From positions 1-5,570 of the IMG/VR virus record IMGVR_UViG_2703718840_000002: 5,570 nt of DNA. One strand, written 5' to 3'. Both the position numbers and the translations under genes were made by a program. Shown here piece after piece: positions 1-5,570 of the stretch (position 1 is the stretch's first letter; every line of letters begins with the position of its first letter). The notes beneath the pieces were generated by a model. That model saw only the letters and a list, made by a program, of their open reading frames with translations, searched no databases and was not told the origin of the DNA. The stretch is from a virus. Its lineage: Duplodnaviria; Heunggongvirae; Uroviricota; Caudoviricetes.

Positions 1-303
1 GTCACTGACCTTGAGCATATCAGCCAGAGTATCGGCGATATCCTGCGCACACCGGTCGGCTCACGGGTGATGCGTCGTGATTACGGCTCGTTGCTGGCGT
101 CAATGATTGACCAGCCGCAGACCCCGGCGCTTGAGTTGCAGATTAAGGTCGCCTGTTACATGGCGGTGCTGAAATGGGAACCCCGCGTCACCCTGTCATC
201 CGTCACCACGGCGCGCAGTTTTGACGGGCGAATAACGGTCACGTTAACCGGTCAGCACAACGACACCGGCCAGCCACTTTCGTTAACCATCCCTGTGAGT
301 TGA
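1..303 (+). CDS. W: Baseplate wedge protein, P2 gpW / T4 gp25-like; 5' end lies outside the window
   Basis: Frame 1 is open from base 1 to TGA at 301-303. Translation (VTDLEHISQSIGDILRTPVGSRVMRRDYGSLLASMIDQPQTPALELQIKVACYMAVLKWEPRVTLSS...) matches my recollection of P2 gpW. The next gene starts 5 nt after the stop. Confidence 0.85.
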   Translation, partial: VTDLEHISQSIGDILRTPVGSRVMRRDYGSLLASMIDQPQTPALELQIKVACYMAVLKWEPRVTLSSVTTARSFDGRITVTLTGQHNDTGQPLSLTIPVS

Positions 304-307
304 AACC

Positions 308-1216
308 ATGCCGATTATCGACCTGAACCAGCTACCCGCACCGGATGTGGTTGAGGAGCTGGACTTTGAAACCATTCTTGCCGAACGCAAGGCGACACTG
401 ATTTCCCTTTACCCGGAAGACCAGCAGGAGGCGGTCGCCCGTACCCTGACGCTGGAATCTGAGCCTCTCGTCAAACTGCTGGAGGAAAATGCTTATCGTG
501 AGCTTATCTGGCGTCAGCGTGTGAATGAGGCTGCACGGGCGGTGATGCTGGCCTGTGCCGCCGGTAATGACCTTGATGTGATTGGTGCCAATTACAACAC
601 CACACGCCTGATTATCACCCCGGCAGATGATTCGACCCTCCCGCCGACACCGGCCGTGATGGAATCTGACACCGATTATCGTCTGCGTATTCAGCAGGCG
701 TTTGAAGGTTTAAGCGTCGCCGGGTCGGTGGGGGCCTATCAGTATCATGGTCGAAGTGCCGACGGGCGTGTCGCAGATATCTCTGTCACCAGTCCTTCTC
801 CGGCCTGCGTCACCATCTCTGTGCTGTCACGTGAAAATAACGGTGTGGCATCCGAAGACCTGCTGGCGGTGGTGCGCAACGCCCTTAATGGTGAGGACGT
901 CAGACCGGTGGCCGACCGTGTGACCGTGCAGTCTGCCGTCATCGTTGAATACCAGATAAATGCCACGCTTTACCTTTACCCTGGCCCCGAAAGCGAACCC
1001 ATTCGCGCTGCCGCCGTGAAAAAACTGGAAGCGTATATCACGGCACAGCACCGGCTGGGGCGCGACATCCGACTGTCTGCCATTTATGCCGCTTTGCATG
1101 TGGAAGGCGTGCAGCGTGTCGAACTGGCTGCACCGCTGGCCGACATCGTGCTCAACAATACGCAGGCGTCTTTCTGTACCGAATACAGCGTCGTGACAGG
1201 AGGCTCGGATGAGTGA
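308..1216 (+). CDS. J: Baseplate assembly protein J (P2 gpJ family)
   Basis: 302-aa ORF, the same length I recall for P2 gpJ. It sits directly after W and before I in the conserved W-J-I-H-G order. Antisense ORFs across it are shadows. Confidence 0.88.
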   Translation: MPIIDLNQLPAPDVVEELDFETILAERKATLISLYPEDQQEAVARTLTLESEPLVKLLEENAYRELIWRQRVNEAARAVMLACAAGNDLDVIGANYNTTRLIITPADDSTLPPTPAVMESDTDYRLRIQQAFEGLSVAGSVGAYQYHGRSADGRVADISVTSPSPACVTISVLSRENNGVASEDLLAVVRNALNGEDVRPVADRVTVQSAVIVEYQINATLYLYPGPESEPIRAAAVKKLEAYITAQHRLGRDIRLSAIYAALHVEGVQRVELAAPLADIVLNNTQASFCTEYSVVTGGSDE

Positions 1217-1820
1217 TTCGCGACTGCTGCCGACCGGCTCATCACCGCTTGAAGTCGCTGCCGCAAAAGCCTGTGCGGAAATTGAAAAAACGCCGGTCAG
1301 TATTCGTGAGCTGTGGAACCCGGACACCTGCCCGGCAAATCTGCTGCCGTGGCTGGCGTGGTCATTTTCGGTTGACCGCTGGGATGATAAGTGGCCGGAA
1401 GCGACAAAACGCGCTGTTATCCGCGATGCGTATTTCATTCACTGCCATAAGGGCACTATAGGCGCAATCCGGCGTGTGGTGGAGCCGCTCGGCTATCTGA
1501 TTGAGGTGAGGGAGTGGTGGCAGCTCAACGAGGAGCCGGGGACGTTCCGCATCGTTGTTGGCGTGCTTGAGCAGGGTATTACCGAGGAAATGTATCAGGA
1601 GCTGGAGCGCCTCGTTGCTGATGCAAAACCGGCAAGCCGCCATCTGACGGGACTGGCTATCAGTTTAAGTACAACCGGCAACATTTTTGCCGGTGCGGGA
1701 TGCTATCACGGTGACGCCCTGACGGTTTATCCCTACACCCCGGAGGCCATTATTGTCGGAGGGGATTATTTCCCGGCCTCGGCCATTCATTTAATTGATA
1801 ACCTGAGAGTAAACGCATGA
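1209..1820 (+). CDS. I: Baseplate protein I (P2 gpI family)
   Basis: 203-aa ORF. GGAGG at 1198-1202 lies 6 nt upstream of ATG 1209, which overlaps the J stop (ATGAGTGA). The N-terminus MSDSRLLPTGSSPLEVAAAKA... is as I recall for P2 gpI, and the stop overlaps the H start (ATGA). Confidence 0.85.
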   Translation: MSDSRLLPTGSSPLEVAAAKACAEIEKTPVSIRELWNPDTCPANLLPWLAWSFSVDRWDDKWPEATKRAVIRDAYFIHCHKGTIGAIRRVVEPLGYLIEVREWWQLNEEPGTFRIVVGVLEQGITEEMYQELERLVADAKPASRHLTGLAISLSTTGNIFAGAGCYHGDALTVYPYTPEAIIVGGDYFPASAIHLIDNLRVNA

Positions 1821-3124
1821 CAGTGAAATACTACGCCATTCTGACTAATCAGGGCGCAGCACGGCTGGCTAACGCGACGATGCTCGGCAGTAAGCTGAAT
1901 CTGACGCAAATGGCCGTTGGTGATGCGAATGGTGTCTTGCCGACACCAGACCCGGCACAGACAAAACTGATTAATCAGAAACGCATCGCGCCGCTGAATC
2001 TTCTGAGTGTTGACCCGAACAACCAGAGCCAGATTATTGCGGAGCAAATCATCCCTGAGAACGAGGGCGGATTCTGGATCCGTGAGATTGGGCTTTATGA
2101 TGATGAAGGCGTACTCATTGCGGTGGCGAACTGCCCGGAAACGTACAAACCGCAGTTGCAGGAAGGCAGTGGTCGTACCCAGACTATCCGCATGATTCTG
2201 GTTGTCACGAATACCGAAGCTATTACGCTGAAAATCGACCCGTCGGTGGTACTGGCGACCCGTAAATACGTGGATGATAAAGTCCTGGAATTAAAGCTGT
2301 ATGTGGATGACCAGATGAGAAACCACATTGCCGCACAAGATCCTCATACCCAGTATGCGCAGAAACATAATCCGACATTTACCGGAGAACCAAAAGCGCC
2401 GACGCCTGCAGCAGGAAATAACACCACGCGGATTGCGACCACTGAGTTTGTTCAGGCCGCTATTACTGCTCTGATTAACGGTGCGCCAGCCACGCTGGAC
2501 ACACTGAAAGAAATTGCCGCAGCCATTAACAATGACCCGAAATTCAGTACCACCATTAACAATGCGCTGTCAGGTAAGCAGCCACTGGATGAGACGCTGA
2601 CTCATTTGAGTGGAAAGGATGTTGCCGGTCTTCTCGCATACCTTGGTTTGGGAGAAGGCTCTGCATTACCTGTTGGTGTCCCTGTTCCGTGGCCTTCAGC
2701 CACTCCGCCAACAGGCTGGCTGAAATGCAACGGAGCAGCTTTTTCTGCTGAAGAATACCCGGAACTGGCAAAGGCTTACCCGACAAATAAATTGCCAGAT
2801 TTACGTGGTGAGTTTATTCGTGGCTGGGATGACGGGCGTGGTATTGATGCTGGACGTGCTTTATTGAGCCTTCAGGCTGGGATGCTGGAAAAACACCGCC
2901 ATATTGTTGTTGCCAATGATGGTTACGACACAAAAGATGAATGGGAACTGGCTACGATTTTCAAAAAAACATACACACAAGGACGGGGACTTGATGCCAC
3001 AAATACAGGAGGGAGTCTGATCCCATCACCGACACTTCATTCACGAGGGAGTATCGGTAATACTGGCGGGAGTGAGACCCGTCCACGAAATATTGCATTT
3101 AACTTTATCGTAAGGGCTGCATAA
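1817..3124 (+). CDS. H: Tail fiber protein H: conserved N-terminal and shaft region plus a C-terminal tail-collar-type receptor-binding tip
   Basis: 435-aa ORF. The N-terminus (MTVKYYAILTNQGAARLANATMLGSKLNLTQMAVGDANGVLPTPDPAQTKLINQKRIAPLNLL...) is the conserved P2 H / Mu S / P1 S fiber N-terminal domain. The C-terminal part (WLKCNGAAFSAEEYPELAKAYPTNKLPDLRGEFIRGWDDGRG) resembles the phage tail collar domain as in T4 gp12. Start overlaps the I stop. It is shorter than P2 gpH (about 669 aa, from memory). Confidence 0.9.
   Translation: MTVKYYAILTNQGAARLANATMLGSKLNLTQMAVGDANGVLPTPDPAQTKLINQKRIAPLNLLSVDPNNQSQIIAEQIIPENEGGFWIREIGLYDDEGVLIAVANCPETYKPQLQEGSGRTQTIRMILVVTNTEAITLKIDPSVVLATRKYVDDKVLELKLYVDDQMRNHIAAQDPHTQYAQKHNPTFTGEPKAPTPAAGNNTTRIATTEFVQAAITALINGAPATLDTLKEIAAAINNDPKFSTTINNALSGKQPLDETLTHLSGKDVAGLLAYLGLGEGSALPVGVPVPWPSATPPTGWLKCNGAAFSAEEYPELAKAYPTNKLPDLRGEFIRGWDDGRGIDAGRALLSLQAGMLEKHRHIVVANDGYDTKDEWELATIFKKTYTQGRGLDATNTGGSLIPSPTLHSRGSIGNTGGSETRPRNIAFNFIVRAA
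2631..2656. other. Candidate crossover site for a Din-family serine invertase (hix/gix/cix/pix-like), at the constant/variable junction of H
   Basis: TTCTCGCATACC-TT-GGTTTGGGAGAA has 12-2-12 architecture. The two half-sites agree at 10 of 12 positions when one is reverse-complemented. The inner ACC/GGT and outer TTCTC/GAGAA arms resemble hixL (TTCTTGAAAACC AA GGTTTTTGATAA, recalled from memory). It encodes LAYLGLGE, about 156 codons before the H stop. Confidence 0.55.
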
Positions 3125-3732
3125 TGGATAACGCAGTATTAAATAGCGAGTTTATTGCCACGAAGGCGGGGAATATTACCGTCTATAACTACGATGGTGA
3201 AACTCGGGAATATATTTCTGCATCAACTGAATATCTTGCAGTGGGTGTCGGTATTCCAGCATATTCCTGTTTAGACGCTCCTGGTACATATAAGGCTGGT
3301 TATACAATTTGCCGTTCTGTAGATTTAAATTCATGGGAATATGTGCCAGACCATCGCGGTGAAATCGTCTATAACACCGAGACGGGAGATGCCAAAGAAA
3401 TCACAGCACCGGGTGATTACCCCGAAAATACAACCACTATCGCCCCATTAACGCCATACGATAAATGGGATGGTGAGAAATGGGTGACCGATACTGAGGC
3501 ACAGCATAGCGCCGCAGTAGACGCGGCAGAAGCACAGCGTCAGTCACTGATTGATACTGCAATGGCTTCCATTAGTCTGATTCAGCTGAAATTACAGGCC
3601 GGACGGAATCTGACGCAGTCAGAAACCAGCCGACTTAACACGGTGTTGGATTACATTGACGCGGTGACGGCAACAGATACCAGCACCGCGCCGGATGTTA
3701 TCTGGCCTGAACTGCCGGAGACTGCGCAATAA
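3124..3732 (+). CDS. G: Tail fiber assembly protein / chaperone (P2 gpG, lambda Tfa, Mu U family)
   Basis: 202-aa ORF whose ATG overlaps the H stop (TAATG). The C-terminus (...RLNTVLDYIDAVTATDTSTAPDVIWPELPETAQ) carries the conserved Tfa motif (RVDTSTAPDIEWP-like). The central DHRGEIVYNTETG...WDGEKWVTDTEAQ segment also matches the family pattern as I recall it. Confidence 0.85.
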   Translation: MDNAVLNSEFIATKAGNITVYNYDGETREYISASTEYLAVGVGIPAYSCLDAPGTYKAGYTICRSVDLNSWEYVPDHRGEIVYNTETGDAKEITAPGDYPENTTTIAPLTPYDKWDGEKWVTDTEAQHSAAVDAAEAQRQSLIDTAMASISLIQLKLQAGRNLTQSETSRLNTVLDYIDAVTATDTSTAPDVIWPELPETAQ

Positions 3733-3868
3733 ACTCACCATCAATATATAAATCCCCCTGCTGTGTGTCAGCAGGGCATTCTTTCCATATTAATGATGGA
3801 TGGAATCTTCCTTCAGGATTAATTTCCGTTATCTCTTCTACTTTATTTTCTTCAATTCTTGCCCACAT
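3698..3868 (-). CDS. Small hypothetical protein (56 aa) coupled to the glycine-rich ORF; possible remnant or short form of an alternative tail-fiber chaperone (Tfa'/U'-like position)
   Basis: On the minus strand the ATG at 3868-3866 is preceded by GGTGAGGT, 5 nt upstream, and this SD overlaps the TGA of the glycine-rich ORF. Translation is MWARIEENKVEEITEINPEGRFHPSLIWKECPADTQQGDLYIDGEFIAQSPAVQAR. Its 3' end overlaps the G 3' end by 35 nt, convergently. It is far too short for a full Tfa and contains the hairpin, so it is uncertain. Confidence 0.3.
   Translation of the reverse strand: MWARIEENKVEEITEINPEGRFHPSLIWKECPADTQQGDLYIDGEFIAQSPAVQAR
3756..3776. terminator. GC-rich hairpin (8-bp stem, 5-nt loop) between the convergent G gene and the minus-strand cassette; possible bidirectional intrinsic terminator
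   Basis: CCCTGCTG (3756-3763), loop TGTGT, CAGCAGGG (3769-3776) form a perfect inverted repeat 24 nt after the G stop. It is followed by CATTCTTTCC on the + strand and by ATTTATATATT on the minus strand. Caveat: it lies inside the candidate small minus-strand ORF. Confidence 0.35.
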
Positions 3869-3875
3869 ATGAACC

Positions 3876-4316
3876 TCACCAGTAAATATAAACTGCGCCA
3901 TCTGCTCCGGCACCCGACTGACCCGTTGATGAATTAGGACATAATCCAGCTCCGCCACCTCCAGGCCCAACTGCTGATACCGCTTTTCCGTTAGCTGTAT
4001 CTCTGAATGAACCTGCTCCTCCGGGGCCACCACCAGAACCACCATTACCAGCTCCCGATGCGGCAGAAGCAATGGAACCTGGAGAACCTGGCCCAAGCGA
4101 TGTATTAATTGTTCCCCCGACACCAACTGCTCCTAACCCTCCGGAAGGCTGGCCTCCGCTATAGCCTCCGGAAGCTGACATGTAAGTCCCGAAACTGCTC
4201 GAGCCACCATTTTTACCGTTTACAGAAATACCAGACACAGGCGCACCACCGGTACTGGAAAAACTCGGTGTTATCAACAAAGAGTCAGACACACTTGACC
4301 AGACCGCCGCCAGAAC
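3876..4316 (-). CDS. Start-less glycine-rich tail-fiber tip domain on the opposite strand (putative alternative variable C-terminal region of H, H'v); likely a gene fragment
   Basis: Minus-strand frame is open from 4316 to TGA at 3878-3876, with no ATG near its 5' end (only GTG at 4292). Translation is rich in poly-Gly/Ser motifs (...GGYSGGQPSGGLGAVGVGG...GAGNGGSGGGPGGAGS...VGPGGGGAG...GADGAVYIYW), as in fiber or adhesin receptor-binding tips. Position and orientation match the S'v half of a Mu G-type invertible segment. The 5' boundary is uncertain because it overlaps the open + frame of the T remnant at 4186-4316. Confidence 0.5.
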   Translation of the reverse strand, partial: VLAAVWSSVSDSLLITPSFSSTGGAPVSGISVNGKNGGSSSFGTYMSASGGYSGGQPSGGLGAVGVGGTINTSLGPGSPGSIASAASGAGNGGSGGGPGGAGSFRDTANGKAVSAVGPGGGGAGLCPNSSTGQSGAGADGAVYIYW

Positions 4317-4569
4317 TCAAGCCGCCACGTATGGCCGCGGTGGTTATATTCCGGCGACCAGCTCTTATGCAGGCTATCAGGCTTATCAGCCGGTCACGGT
4401 ACCGGCTGGTCGCTCTTATGTGGACCAGAGTAAAAACGAATATCACATCAGTCTGACGGGCGGTACTGCGCCGGGGACACAGCTTGACCGCCAGTTACAG
4501 GATGCACTCGAAAAATACGAGCGGGATAAACGTGCGCGCGCCCGTGCCAGCATGATGCATGACGGTTAA
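4186..4569 (+). pseudogene. T: Tail tape measure protein T, C-terminal fragment only (N-terminal bulk of the gene absent)
   Basis: Frame 1 is open from 4186 (after TAA at 4183-4185) to TAA at 4567-4569, with no start codon. It ends ...LDRQLQDALEKYERDKRARARASMMHDG immediately before the U SD and start, where P2 synteny (T-U-D) places the end of T. The true 5' junction lies somewhere between about 4186 and 4320. Confidence 0.6.
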
Positions 4570-4583
4570 GGAGGTGACGAAAA

Positions 4584-5063
4584 ATGATGCTCGCGTTAGG
4601 TATGTTTGTTTTTATGCGCCAGACGCTGCCACACCAGACCATGCAGCGTGAATCAGATTATCGCTGGCCGTCAAATTCCCGTATCGGTAAACGGGATGCC
4701 TTTCAGTTTCTCGGTGTGGGTGAGGAAAACATCACGCTTGCCGGCGTGCTTTATCCCGAACTGACCGGCGGGAAGCTGACGATGACCACGCTCAGACTGA
4801 TGGCAGAGGAAGGCCGGGCGTGGCCGTTGCTGGATGGCACCGGCATGATTTACGGCATGTATGTCATCAGCAGGGTGAGTGAAACAGGGAGTATTTTCTT
4901 TGCAGACGGCACACCCCGGAAAATTGATTTTACGCTGTCGCTCACCCGCGTTGATGAATCACTGGCCGCGCTTTATGGCGATATCGGTAAACAGGCGGAA
5001 TCGCTCATCGGTAAGGCTGGCAGTATGGCGACCAGATTCACGGGTATGACGGGGGTGGGATAA
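4584..5063 (+). CDS. U: Tail protein U (P2 gpU family)
   Basis: 159-aa ORF (MMLALGMFVFMRQTLPHQTMQRESDYRWPSNSRIGKRDAFQFLGVGEENITLAGVLYPELTGG...), the same length I recall for P2 gpU. GGAGG at 4570-4574 lies 9 nt upstream of the ATG. Its stop overlaps the D start (TAATG). Confidence 0.82.
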   Translation: MMLALGMFVFMRQTLPHQTMQRESDYRWPSNSRIGKRDAFQFLGVGEENITLAGVLYPELTGGKLTMTTLRLMAEEGRAWPLLDGTGMIYGMYVISRVSETGSIFFADGTPRKIDFTLSLTRVDESLAALYGDIGKQAESLIGKAGSMATRFTGMTGVG

Positions 5064-5570
5064 TGCTGGATGCGCTGACATTTGATGCAGGCAGTACGCT
5101 GACGCCGGATTACATGCTGATGCTCGACAGCAGGGATATTACCGGCAATATCAGCGACCGTCTGATGAGTATGACCCTGACGGATAACCGGGGCTTTGAG
5201 GCTGACCAGCTTGATATTGAACTGAACGATGCCGACGGGCAGGTCGGGCTGCCGGTTCGTGGCGCTGTCCTGACGGTGTATATCGGCTGGAAAGGTTTTG
5301 CTCTGGTATGCAAAGGGAAATTTACCGTTGATGAGGTTGAACACCGGGGCGCGCCGGATGTGGTCACCATCCGCGCCCGGAGTGCAGATTTCCGCGGGAC
5401 GCTCAATTCCCGCCGTGAAGGTTCATGGCATGACACCACGCTCGGTGCGATTGTTGAGGCGATAGCCTCCCGTAACAGGCTGGAAGCCAGAGTCGCTCCG
5501 TCACTGGCCGGAATTAAAATCCCACACATCGACCAGTCGCAGGAGTCCGACGCGAAATTCCTGACCCGTC
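5063..5570 (+). CDS. D: Tail protein D (P2 gpD family); 3' end lies outside the window
   Basis: ATG at 5063 overlaps the U stop. Frame 2 stays open to the window end (169 codons, no stop). Translation MLDALTFDAGSTLTPDYMLMLDSRDITGNISDRLMSMTLTDNRGFEADQLDIELNDADGQVGLPVRG... matches my recollection of P2 gpD. The two antisense ORFs (4973..5344, 5110..5529) are shadows. Confidence 0.85.
   Translation, partial: MLDALTFDAGSTLTPDYMLMLDSRDITGNISDRLMSMTLTDNRGFEADQLDIELNDADGQVGLPVRGAVLTVYIGWKGFALVCKGKFTVDEVEHRGAPDVVTIRARSADFRGTLNSRREGSWHDTTLGAIVEAIASRNRLEARVAPSLAGIKIPHIDQSQESDAKFLTR

Follow-up and report, generated by a model that had tools for sequence, protein, structure and literature searches.

Why would a tail fibre gene carry a single, intact-looking crossover site of the kind used by DNA invertases, and what became of the switch to which such a site belongs? 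The question is raised by a 5,570-nt stretch of viral DNA (IMG/VR record IMGVR_UViG_2703718840_000002; hereafter the window), which is the whole draft contig LOOF01000044.1 (1-5570) of assembly GCA_001576305.1. Judged from its gene content, the window covers late tail genes of a P2-like (Peduovirus) prophage of Escherichia coli, and the element in question occupies positions 2631-2656 on the + strand, within the tail fibre gene H (1817-3124, + strand; 435 aa, with an N-terminal Phage_tail_fib domain and a Tail-Collar domain). We consider it very probable that this element is the H-proximal site of a Pin/Cin-type tail-fibre switch, and that it was orphaned by a 5,303-bp deletion.

The element reads TTCTCGCATACC-TT-GGTTTGGGAGAA (whole 26-mer TTCTCGCATACCTTGGTTTGGGAGAA) and occurs once in the window. 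Its outer half-site (2631-2642) and inner half-site (2645-2656) are symmetric at 10 of 12 positions about the core dinucleotide TT (2643-2644). In a half-site weight matrix made only from published Din-family sites, the element scores 31.2 bits, while the runner-up among the 5,545 window positions scored reaches 4.3 bits, and none of 200 shuffled controls matched the 26-mer at three or fewer mismatches. The sole departure from the Din consensus is GGTAT for GGTTT, which is also found in the functional sites cixR and bixL.

The experimentally defined Din sites (PMC3241671, Table 3) share just 13-25 of 26 positions with one another. The window site (on the opposite strand, TTCTCCCAAACC AA GGTATGCGAGAA) is identical to pixL of e14 at 23 of 26 positions, to one p15B mix site at 22, and to cixR and pixR at 21 each; its core and inner (segment-proximal) half-site together are identical to both pixL and pixR (14/14). 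Sites that we re-read from P7 (annotated cix), Mu (G-segment boundaries) and K-12 e14 agree with the published table, and these sites and that of the window lie in the same tail-fibre frame, encoding (Y/N)-L-G-L-x-E. An earlier inspection of the window (the sequence-only reading) had proposed a 26-bp site with the 12-2-12 layout of the Hin, Gin, Cin and Pin sites, and the match indeed goes significantly beyond that of a generic palindrome. The element is confirmed as a genuine Din-family (pix/cix-type) crossover site in the H-proximal position.

Within H, the 26-mer is in frame and encodes LLAYLGLGE (codons 272-280). It separates the constant part of the gene (Hc, 1817-2630, + strand; PF12571 Phage_tail_fib, E-value 1.4e-62) from the expressed variable tip (Hv, 2657-3124, + strand), a stfE-type Tail-Collar tip whose Collar domain (PF07484, residues 287-334) starts seven codons past the site. 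Similarity to homologues ends at the same place. Phage matches to the window found by BLAST (pro483, vB_EcoM-640R3) end at 2656 or 2657; among E. coli genomes sampled for spread, many matches stop at 2655-2657 or start at 2632-2646; and e14-type stfP genes match the alternative tip from exactly the first base of the site. The exact 26-mer is present in at least 119 IMG/VR contigs, in which at least four unrelated cassette classes follow directly after it. The boundary between shaft and tail-collar tip was thus correctly placed by the sequence-only reading. The fall in base composition that it described exists as well (G+C drops from about 0.52 to 0.42-0.47), but it is confined to about 2800-3400 rather than setting in at the site itself.

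Nothing else that an inversion requires was found in the window. Searches with a degenerate Din consensus (three or fewer mismatches), for repeats and with the half-site matrix returned no second Din site in the window, and no inverted partner with the same core dinucleotide lies in cis within these 5.6 kb. Open reading frame (ORF) and domain searches of the window found no invertase gene: there is no ORF of at least 50 aa beyond the P2-type tail genes and a cassette remnant, and none with the architecture of a small serine recombinase (Resolvase catalytic domain plus C-terminal HTH_7). The Fis-dependent enhancer region, which is located in the 5' part of the invertase gene, is also absent from the window and belongs to the deleted DNA. 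Two half-site-like matches, 4203-4228 and 4255-4280, had been examined and dismissed before, and rightly so, as they score only -6.6 and -7.0 bits; the first is native alternative-tip sequence and the second is native sequence of the tape-measure gene T, identical in the intact T of a relative (L009). As had been proposed, the site is an orphan and the fibre is locked in cis in one orientation (Tail-Collar), since partner, enhancer and invertase are all missing from the window; what had been overlooked is a remnant of the alternative cassette on the minus strand at 3698-4252.

The complete arrangement is preserved in relatives. L009, a contig from SRR11451197, encodes an identical 435-aa H protein and is 98.97% identical to the window over 1-4255. 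It contains the left site, the Tail-Collar tip with its assembly gene, a small ORF and a glycine-rich tip on the opposite strand, and an inverted right site, past which a 197-aa Resolvase+HTH_7 protein is encoded, followed by FI, FII, E, T, U and D. The layout of L002 (E. coli strain 2196) is the same, and its right site TTCTCCCAAACCAACGTTTATGAAAA is the published pixR (26/26). In L002, L005, L007, L008 and L009, the partner with matching TT core is located about 1.87 kb from the left site. The recombinase of the relatives is 96% identical to the annotated DNA invertase of phage pro483, 86% to PinE and 77% to Cin and Gin, and it matches the Gin structure 3UJ3 with an E-value of 6e-95. In L009, the stretch that corresponds to the enhancer annotated in P7 cin is identical to it at 53 of 68 nt and is a putative Fis-binding enhancer. 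The full-length glycine-rich tip of a relative belongs to PF21722 (Gly_rich_2; E-value 1.4e-11).

Inversion at this site is directly visible in a pair of sister E. coli isolates obtained in a single horse study, SWYHX138.33gt (L007) and SWYHX138.261ft (L008). Their flanks are 99.98% and 99.96% identical, and the segment between the crossover sites (4973-4998 and 6853-6878 in L007; 5131-5156 and 6991-7016 in L008) is flipped, so that one isolate joins Hc to the glycine-rich tip and the other joins Hc to the Collar tip. A single-nucleotide polymorphism in the inner half-site (GGTTTGAGAGAA versus GGTTTGGGAGAA) moves with the cassette and the distinct outer half-sites stay with the flanks; therefore, the exchange took place within site positions 13-19, core TT included. 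The flipped junction (Hc plus glycine-rich tip) was also found in strain PEC395 with 100% coverage and 98.1% identity. Both cassettes are in frame with Hc after inversion, and the alternative tip, when flipped, yields a complete alternative fibre. Both orientations are therefore observed in relatives (L007 versus L008; PEC395), and a single orientation is observed in the window lineage (four assemblies).

These observations bear on an alternative, that the element is merely a palindrome within coding sequence (the LLAYLGLGE motif), with its likeness to Din sites due to chance or protein constraint. That the in-frame motif (Y/N-L-G-L-x-E) is also encoded at P7 cix and Mu gix does indicate that protein constraint contributes to the conservation of the site. 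However, a score of 31 bits against 4 for the runner-up, a change of orientation exactly at the site between near-identical isolates with a half-site polymorphism that follows the cassette, a pixR-identical partner and Pin-like invertase in relatives, and unrelated cassettes abutting the same 26-mer all speak against it, and we regard this explanation as almost certainly wrong. The flip seen between the sister isolates refutes it as far as comparative data can.

The window site can be placed among well-studied textbook systems, namely the e14 P-segment, the P1 C-segment and the Mu G-segment. The e14 P-segment (pixL/pixR, PinE, stfP-tfaP / stfE-tfaE) resembles it in core and inner half-site and, for the site as a whole, in pixL; the right site and invertase of the relatives are likewise of e14 type, and the expressed cassette of the window is of stfE-tfaE type. 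The two differ in that e14 is a lambdoid element whereas the host element of the window is a P2-like myovirus prophage, in the outer half-site (CTCTCGAAAACC in e14, TTCTCGCATACC in the window), and in the loss of partner site and invertase from the window. Identity is 96% between window 2643-2848 and stfE of K-12 e14, which is there in the silent orientation, and 89.5% over the aligned part between the assembly gene of the window and e14 tfaE. It was also observed that window 2657-3732 aligns with 4524-5619 of L006 (K-12 e14), which places the stfE/tfaE cassette of the lambdoid e14 in a P2-like prophage, and that the alternative tip has counterparts of 98-99% identity in the stfP genes of other E. 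coli, with similarity beginning exactly at the crossover site.

The C-segment of P1/P7 (cix, Cin) shares with the window the 12-2-12 layout, the TT core, the position at the Sc/Sv boundary and the frame (YLGLxE); the window site is identical to the Sc-side cix at 21 of 26 positions, and the invertase gene adjoins the segment and holds the enhancer. It differs in its length in P1 (4.2 kb, with long inverted repeats), in carrying other cassettes, and in an invertase that is 77% identical. The G-segment of Mu (gix, Gin) has the same architecture and frame (NLGLQE), and the relatives' invertase, 77% identical to Gin, matches the Gin structures 3UJ3 and 4M6F. However, the sites are identical at only 17 of 26 positions and the Mu core is TC rather than TT; therefore, the two would not be cross-compatible at the core. 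P2-like invertible segments (EPEC, i.e. enteropathogenic E. coli, E2348/69; phage pro483; P2 of O157:H43 T22) agree in gene order, with H and G followed by inverted G' and inverted Hv', then the invertase and FI. Among them, pro483 contains the identical 26-mer and an invertase 96% identical to that of the relatives. Inversion in such a P2-like prophage was shown by sequencing and polymerase chain reaction in EPEC (PMC4272514), and invertases have been described as frequent at this P2 locus (bioRxiv 10.1101/2024.10.15.618418). Unlike these segments, the window copy is decayed and lacks partner site, invertase and tail genes. The switch system is thus already known, and the window is a decayed copy of it, a case of ordinary prophage decay.

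The decay can be traced to one event. Window 1-4255 aligns with L009 8185-12439, and window 4251-5570 aligns with L009 17742-19061, which places the breakpoints at L009 12439 and 17742 and the loss at 5,303 bp. The pentamer GGTAC is present at both L009 breakpoints (12435-12439 and 17742-17746) and in a single copy at the junction in the window (4251-4255). Gone with this DNA are the right crossover site and the invertase gene, the genes FI, FII and E/E', and the opening parts of two further coding sequences: 241 nt of the silent glycine-rich tip and 2,129 of the 2,448 nt (87%) of T. At the junction, the last 105 codons of T are now fused to a tail-fibre tip in antisense orientation. The same right-hand part (4251-5570) aligns with L003 5077-6396, which lies within the annotated tape-measure gene and the genes downstream of it. 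The invertible segment had been proposed to span 2657-4316; this delimitation does not hold, because the natural right boundary lies about 270 bp past 4252, in the deleted DNA.

The junction might be an assembly artefact, with an intact switch in the real genome. The window is, after all, an entire 5,570-bp draft contig, and the sister scaffold L010 has a gap of 299 N (13755-14053) just past window 5570, exactly where the window ends. However, k-mer assemblers cannot join contigs on a 5-bp overlap, so junction-spanning reads must exist, and three more assemblies (LOOG, JYHP and Logan SRR3492230), an independent project and the Logan assembly among them, have contigs with a 100% identical junction. 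Its presence in four assemblies shows that the deletion is real and common to a lineage. In addition, the Logan contig (L013, from SRR3492230) passes 4255 without break or branch and ends at window 4280, the last base of the last 31-mer that contains junction base 4250. Assuming an assembly graph with k = 31, this end is expected if the T sequence has a second context in the sample and the undeleted continuation of the tip is absent there. An artefact is therefore extremely unlikely, and it was rejected on account of the four assemblies. The junction is absent from the complete E. coli genomes of RefSeq, none of the 5,426 covering at least 80% of the window.

Could the invertase itself have made the deletion, by recombining the right crossover site with a quasi-site in T? 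The T sequence next to the junction (4253-4278) ranks 7th of the 5,545 positions on the Din matrix, and its likeness to a half-site was noticed in the sequence-only reading. Nevertheless, it scores just -1.7 bits; the left breakpoint falls within the coding sequence of the tip, 241 nt away from where the true right site is; and the junction is the GGTAC microhomology, about 10 bp off the would-be core, not a hybrid 12-2-12 site. This explanation was rejected as contradicted by the junction sequence, and it has practically no chance of being right. The deletion is an illegitimate event of the microhomology type and not an invertase product, because the left breakpoint is inside the tip coding sequence and there is no hybrid site.

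Taken together, the following course of events is proposed for the switch. In intact prophages, the invertase would pair the H-proximal site with the inverted partner about 1.87 kb downstream, cut both at the central TT and exchange strands, a chemistry that is assumed here by analogy with the literature on Gin, Hin and Cin. The segment with its two convergent cassettes, each made up of a tip and an assembly gene, would then flip, so that Hc is fused in frame either to the Tail-Collar tip or to the glycine-rich tip, depending on orientation. In the window lineage, an illegitimate deletion between the two GGTAC pentamers removed the partner site, the invertase and its internal enhancer, leaving the surviving site as an intact-looking relic without function in cis and H frozen in the Tail-Collar (stfE-like) form. 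We infer that inversion no longer occurs in the strain of the window itself. Lacking its sheath and tube genes and most of its tape-measure gene, the prophage is unable to assemble tails on its own, and the locked state of the fibre therefore has little biological or phenotypic weight.

Several points weigh against this account. A compatible site or a Din invertase may be present elsewhere in GCA_001576305.1, as the search covered the window, and the lack of inversion in the strain is judged from assembled contigs rather than reads. The ends of L013 and L010 suggest a second P2-like prophage that shares T and D sequence, possibly with an invertase of its own. Inside the flipped segment, the alignment between the two horse isolates is poor (81-89%, with many gaps), which is probably consensus noise from reads of mixed orientation; the junctions alone are therefore the clean evidence. 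The segment interiors of L007 and L008 carry annotated frameshifts and an internal stop.

Another explanation is that the site is still active and that a Din invertase acting in trans (e14 Pin, or that of a second P2-like prophage) recombines it with a distant compatible site. The outcome would be large inversions or deletions, or import of new tip cassettes. The Din invertases Gin, Cin, Pin and Hin cross-complement, the site is identical to functional copies at all 26 positions, the way contigs end hints that the lineage has a second P2-like element, and where lambdoid e14 and P2-like prophages have identical cassettes, the site is their exact boundary. However, no partner lies within the 5.6-kb window, contigs of four assemblies cross the site in a single orientation, and Din inversion, which is inefficient when the sites are far apart, requires both of them to share a supercoiled domain with the Fis-bound enhancer. 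Such activity is very unlikely as an account of the locus. There is likewise only a slim chance that the orphan site serves as a live substrate for Pin-type invertases from e14 or a co-resident P2-like prophage; if it did, rare recombination with distant pix-type sites could swap tips between unrelated prophages or invert large chromosomal segments, and would provide a site-specific route to the sharing of cassettes between e14 and P2. The orphaning of the site by deletion, as set out above, is the reading that we retain.

How often does the same 26-mer occur in an intact switch? The tally of partners and invertases was limited to the 39 IMG/VR contigs with at least 3.5 kb downstream of the 26-mer. 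An inverted partner and an invertase were both found in 31 of the 39, mostly with a partner distance of 1.5-1.95 kb; five have the partner only, one has the invertase only and two have neither. The five partner-only contigs have no invertase within 6 kb. In L073 (5012-5037) and L074 (6571-6596), both from IMG/VR, the exact 26-mer has no inverted partner or invertase within 6 kb; in L073, the ORFs right after H-G have the sizes of sheath and tube genes, and there is no alternative cassette. The two contigs are independent cases of an orphan site. Orphan sites in tail-fibre genes are therefore recurrent and ordinary. Among the IMG/VR contigs L025, L030, L070 and L060, some contain the same 26-mer at both segment ends, as perfect inverted sites like Mu gix, and one contains three copies, which suggests a shufflon-like multi-segment arrangement. 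Among GTDB species representatives, Escherichia sp. MOD1-EC7003 alone has the exact 26-mer, which is present there on two contigs. A decayed P2-like prophage of a different kind was seen in L001 (E. coli ECJXMCRH7; 991-1459 and 6671-7243), where S is fused to V and a truncated sheath gene is joined to U; it retains both crossover sites and the invertase, a pattern of decay opposite to that of the window.

As for the remnant of the alternative cassette, a truncated inverted copy persists at 3698-4252 on the minus strand and is no longer expressible. The truncated alternative tip (Hv', Gly_rich_2; 3876-4252, - strand) aligns to L002 and L009 up to window 4255 and lacks its 5' 241 nt and its crossover site. 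It is followed by a 56-aa ORF (MWARIEENKVEEITEINPEGRF...; 3698-3868, - strand), whose ATG lies 7 nt past the stop codon of the glycine-rich tip, behind GAGG. This ORF has no family match in Pfam, PHROGs or NCBIfam, and it may encode an undescribed partner or chaperone of Gly_rich_2 tips. Public assemblies instead call an overlapping 115-aa "hypothetical protein" (3698-4045, - strand) that runs out of frame across the tip. Silent tip cassettes are mis-annotated elsewhere too, for example at 7684-8145 of L015 (E. coli WCHEC005784) and 7969-8580 of L002, as "integrase, partial" or "glycine-rich domain-containing protein, partial".

The remaining genes are those of a P2-like late tail operon, both in the order W-J-I-H-G ... 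T-U-D and in their matching Pfam families. Upstream of H are the 3' end of W (1-303), J (308-1216) and I (1209-1820). The assembly gene of the expressed cassette (G/tfaE type; 3124-3732, + strand) belongs to PF02413 Caudo_TAP (E-value 3.7e-32) and phrog_105. Past the junction, on the + strand, lie the 3' remnant of T (4256-4568; last ~105 codons), U (4584-5063; PF06995 Phage_P2_GpU, E-value 3.7e-44) and D (5063-5570), which runs off the end of the contig; this operon has lost FI, FII, E, E' and the greater part of T. A sister scaffold of the same sequence runs on into ogr and then pflB-focA-ycaO, which is 99.8% identical to E. coli and thereby identifies the host as E. coli. In other E. coli strains, intact P2-like prophages occupy that chromosomal position.

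In summary, the finding has limited weight beyond annotation, and the case illustrates the decay of a phase-variable host-range switch, in which the invertase, its second crossover site and the tail genes were all lost through a single microhomology deletion. Cassette boundaries in tail-fibre genes can be located reliably by the exact 26-mer, which P2-like and e14-type prophages have in common. Its recognition would aid gene callers, which now label silent cassettes as "hypothetical protein", "integrase (partial)" or "glycine-rich domain protein (partial)".

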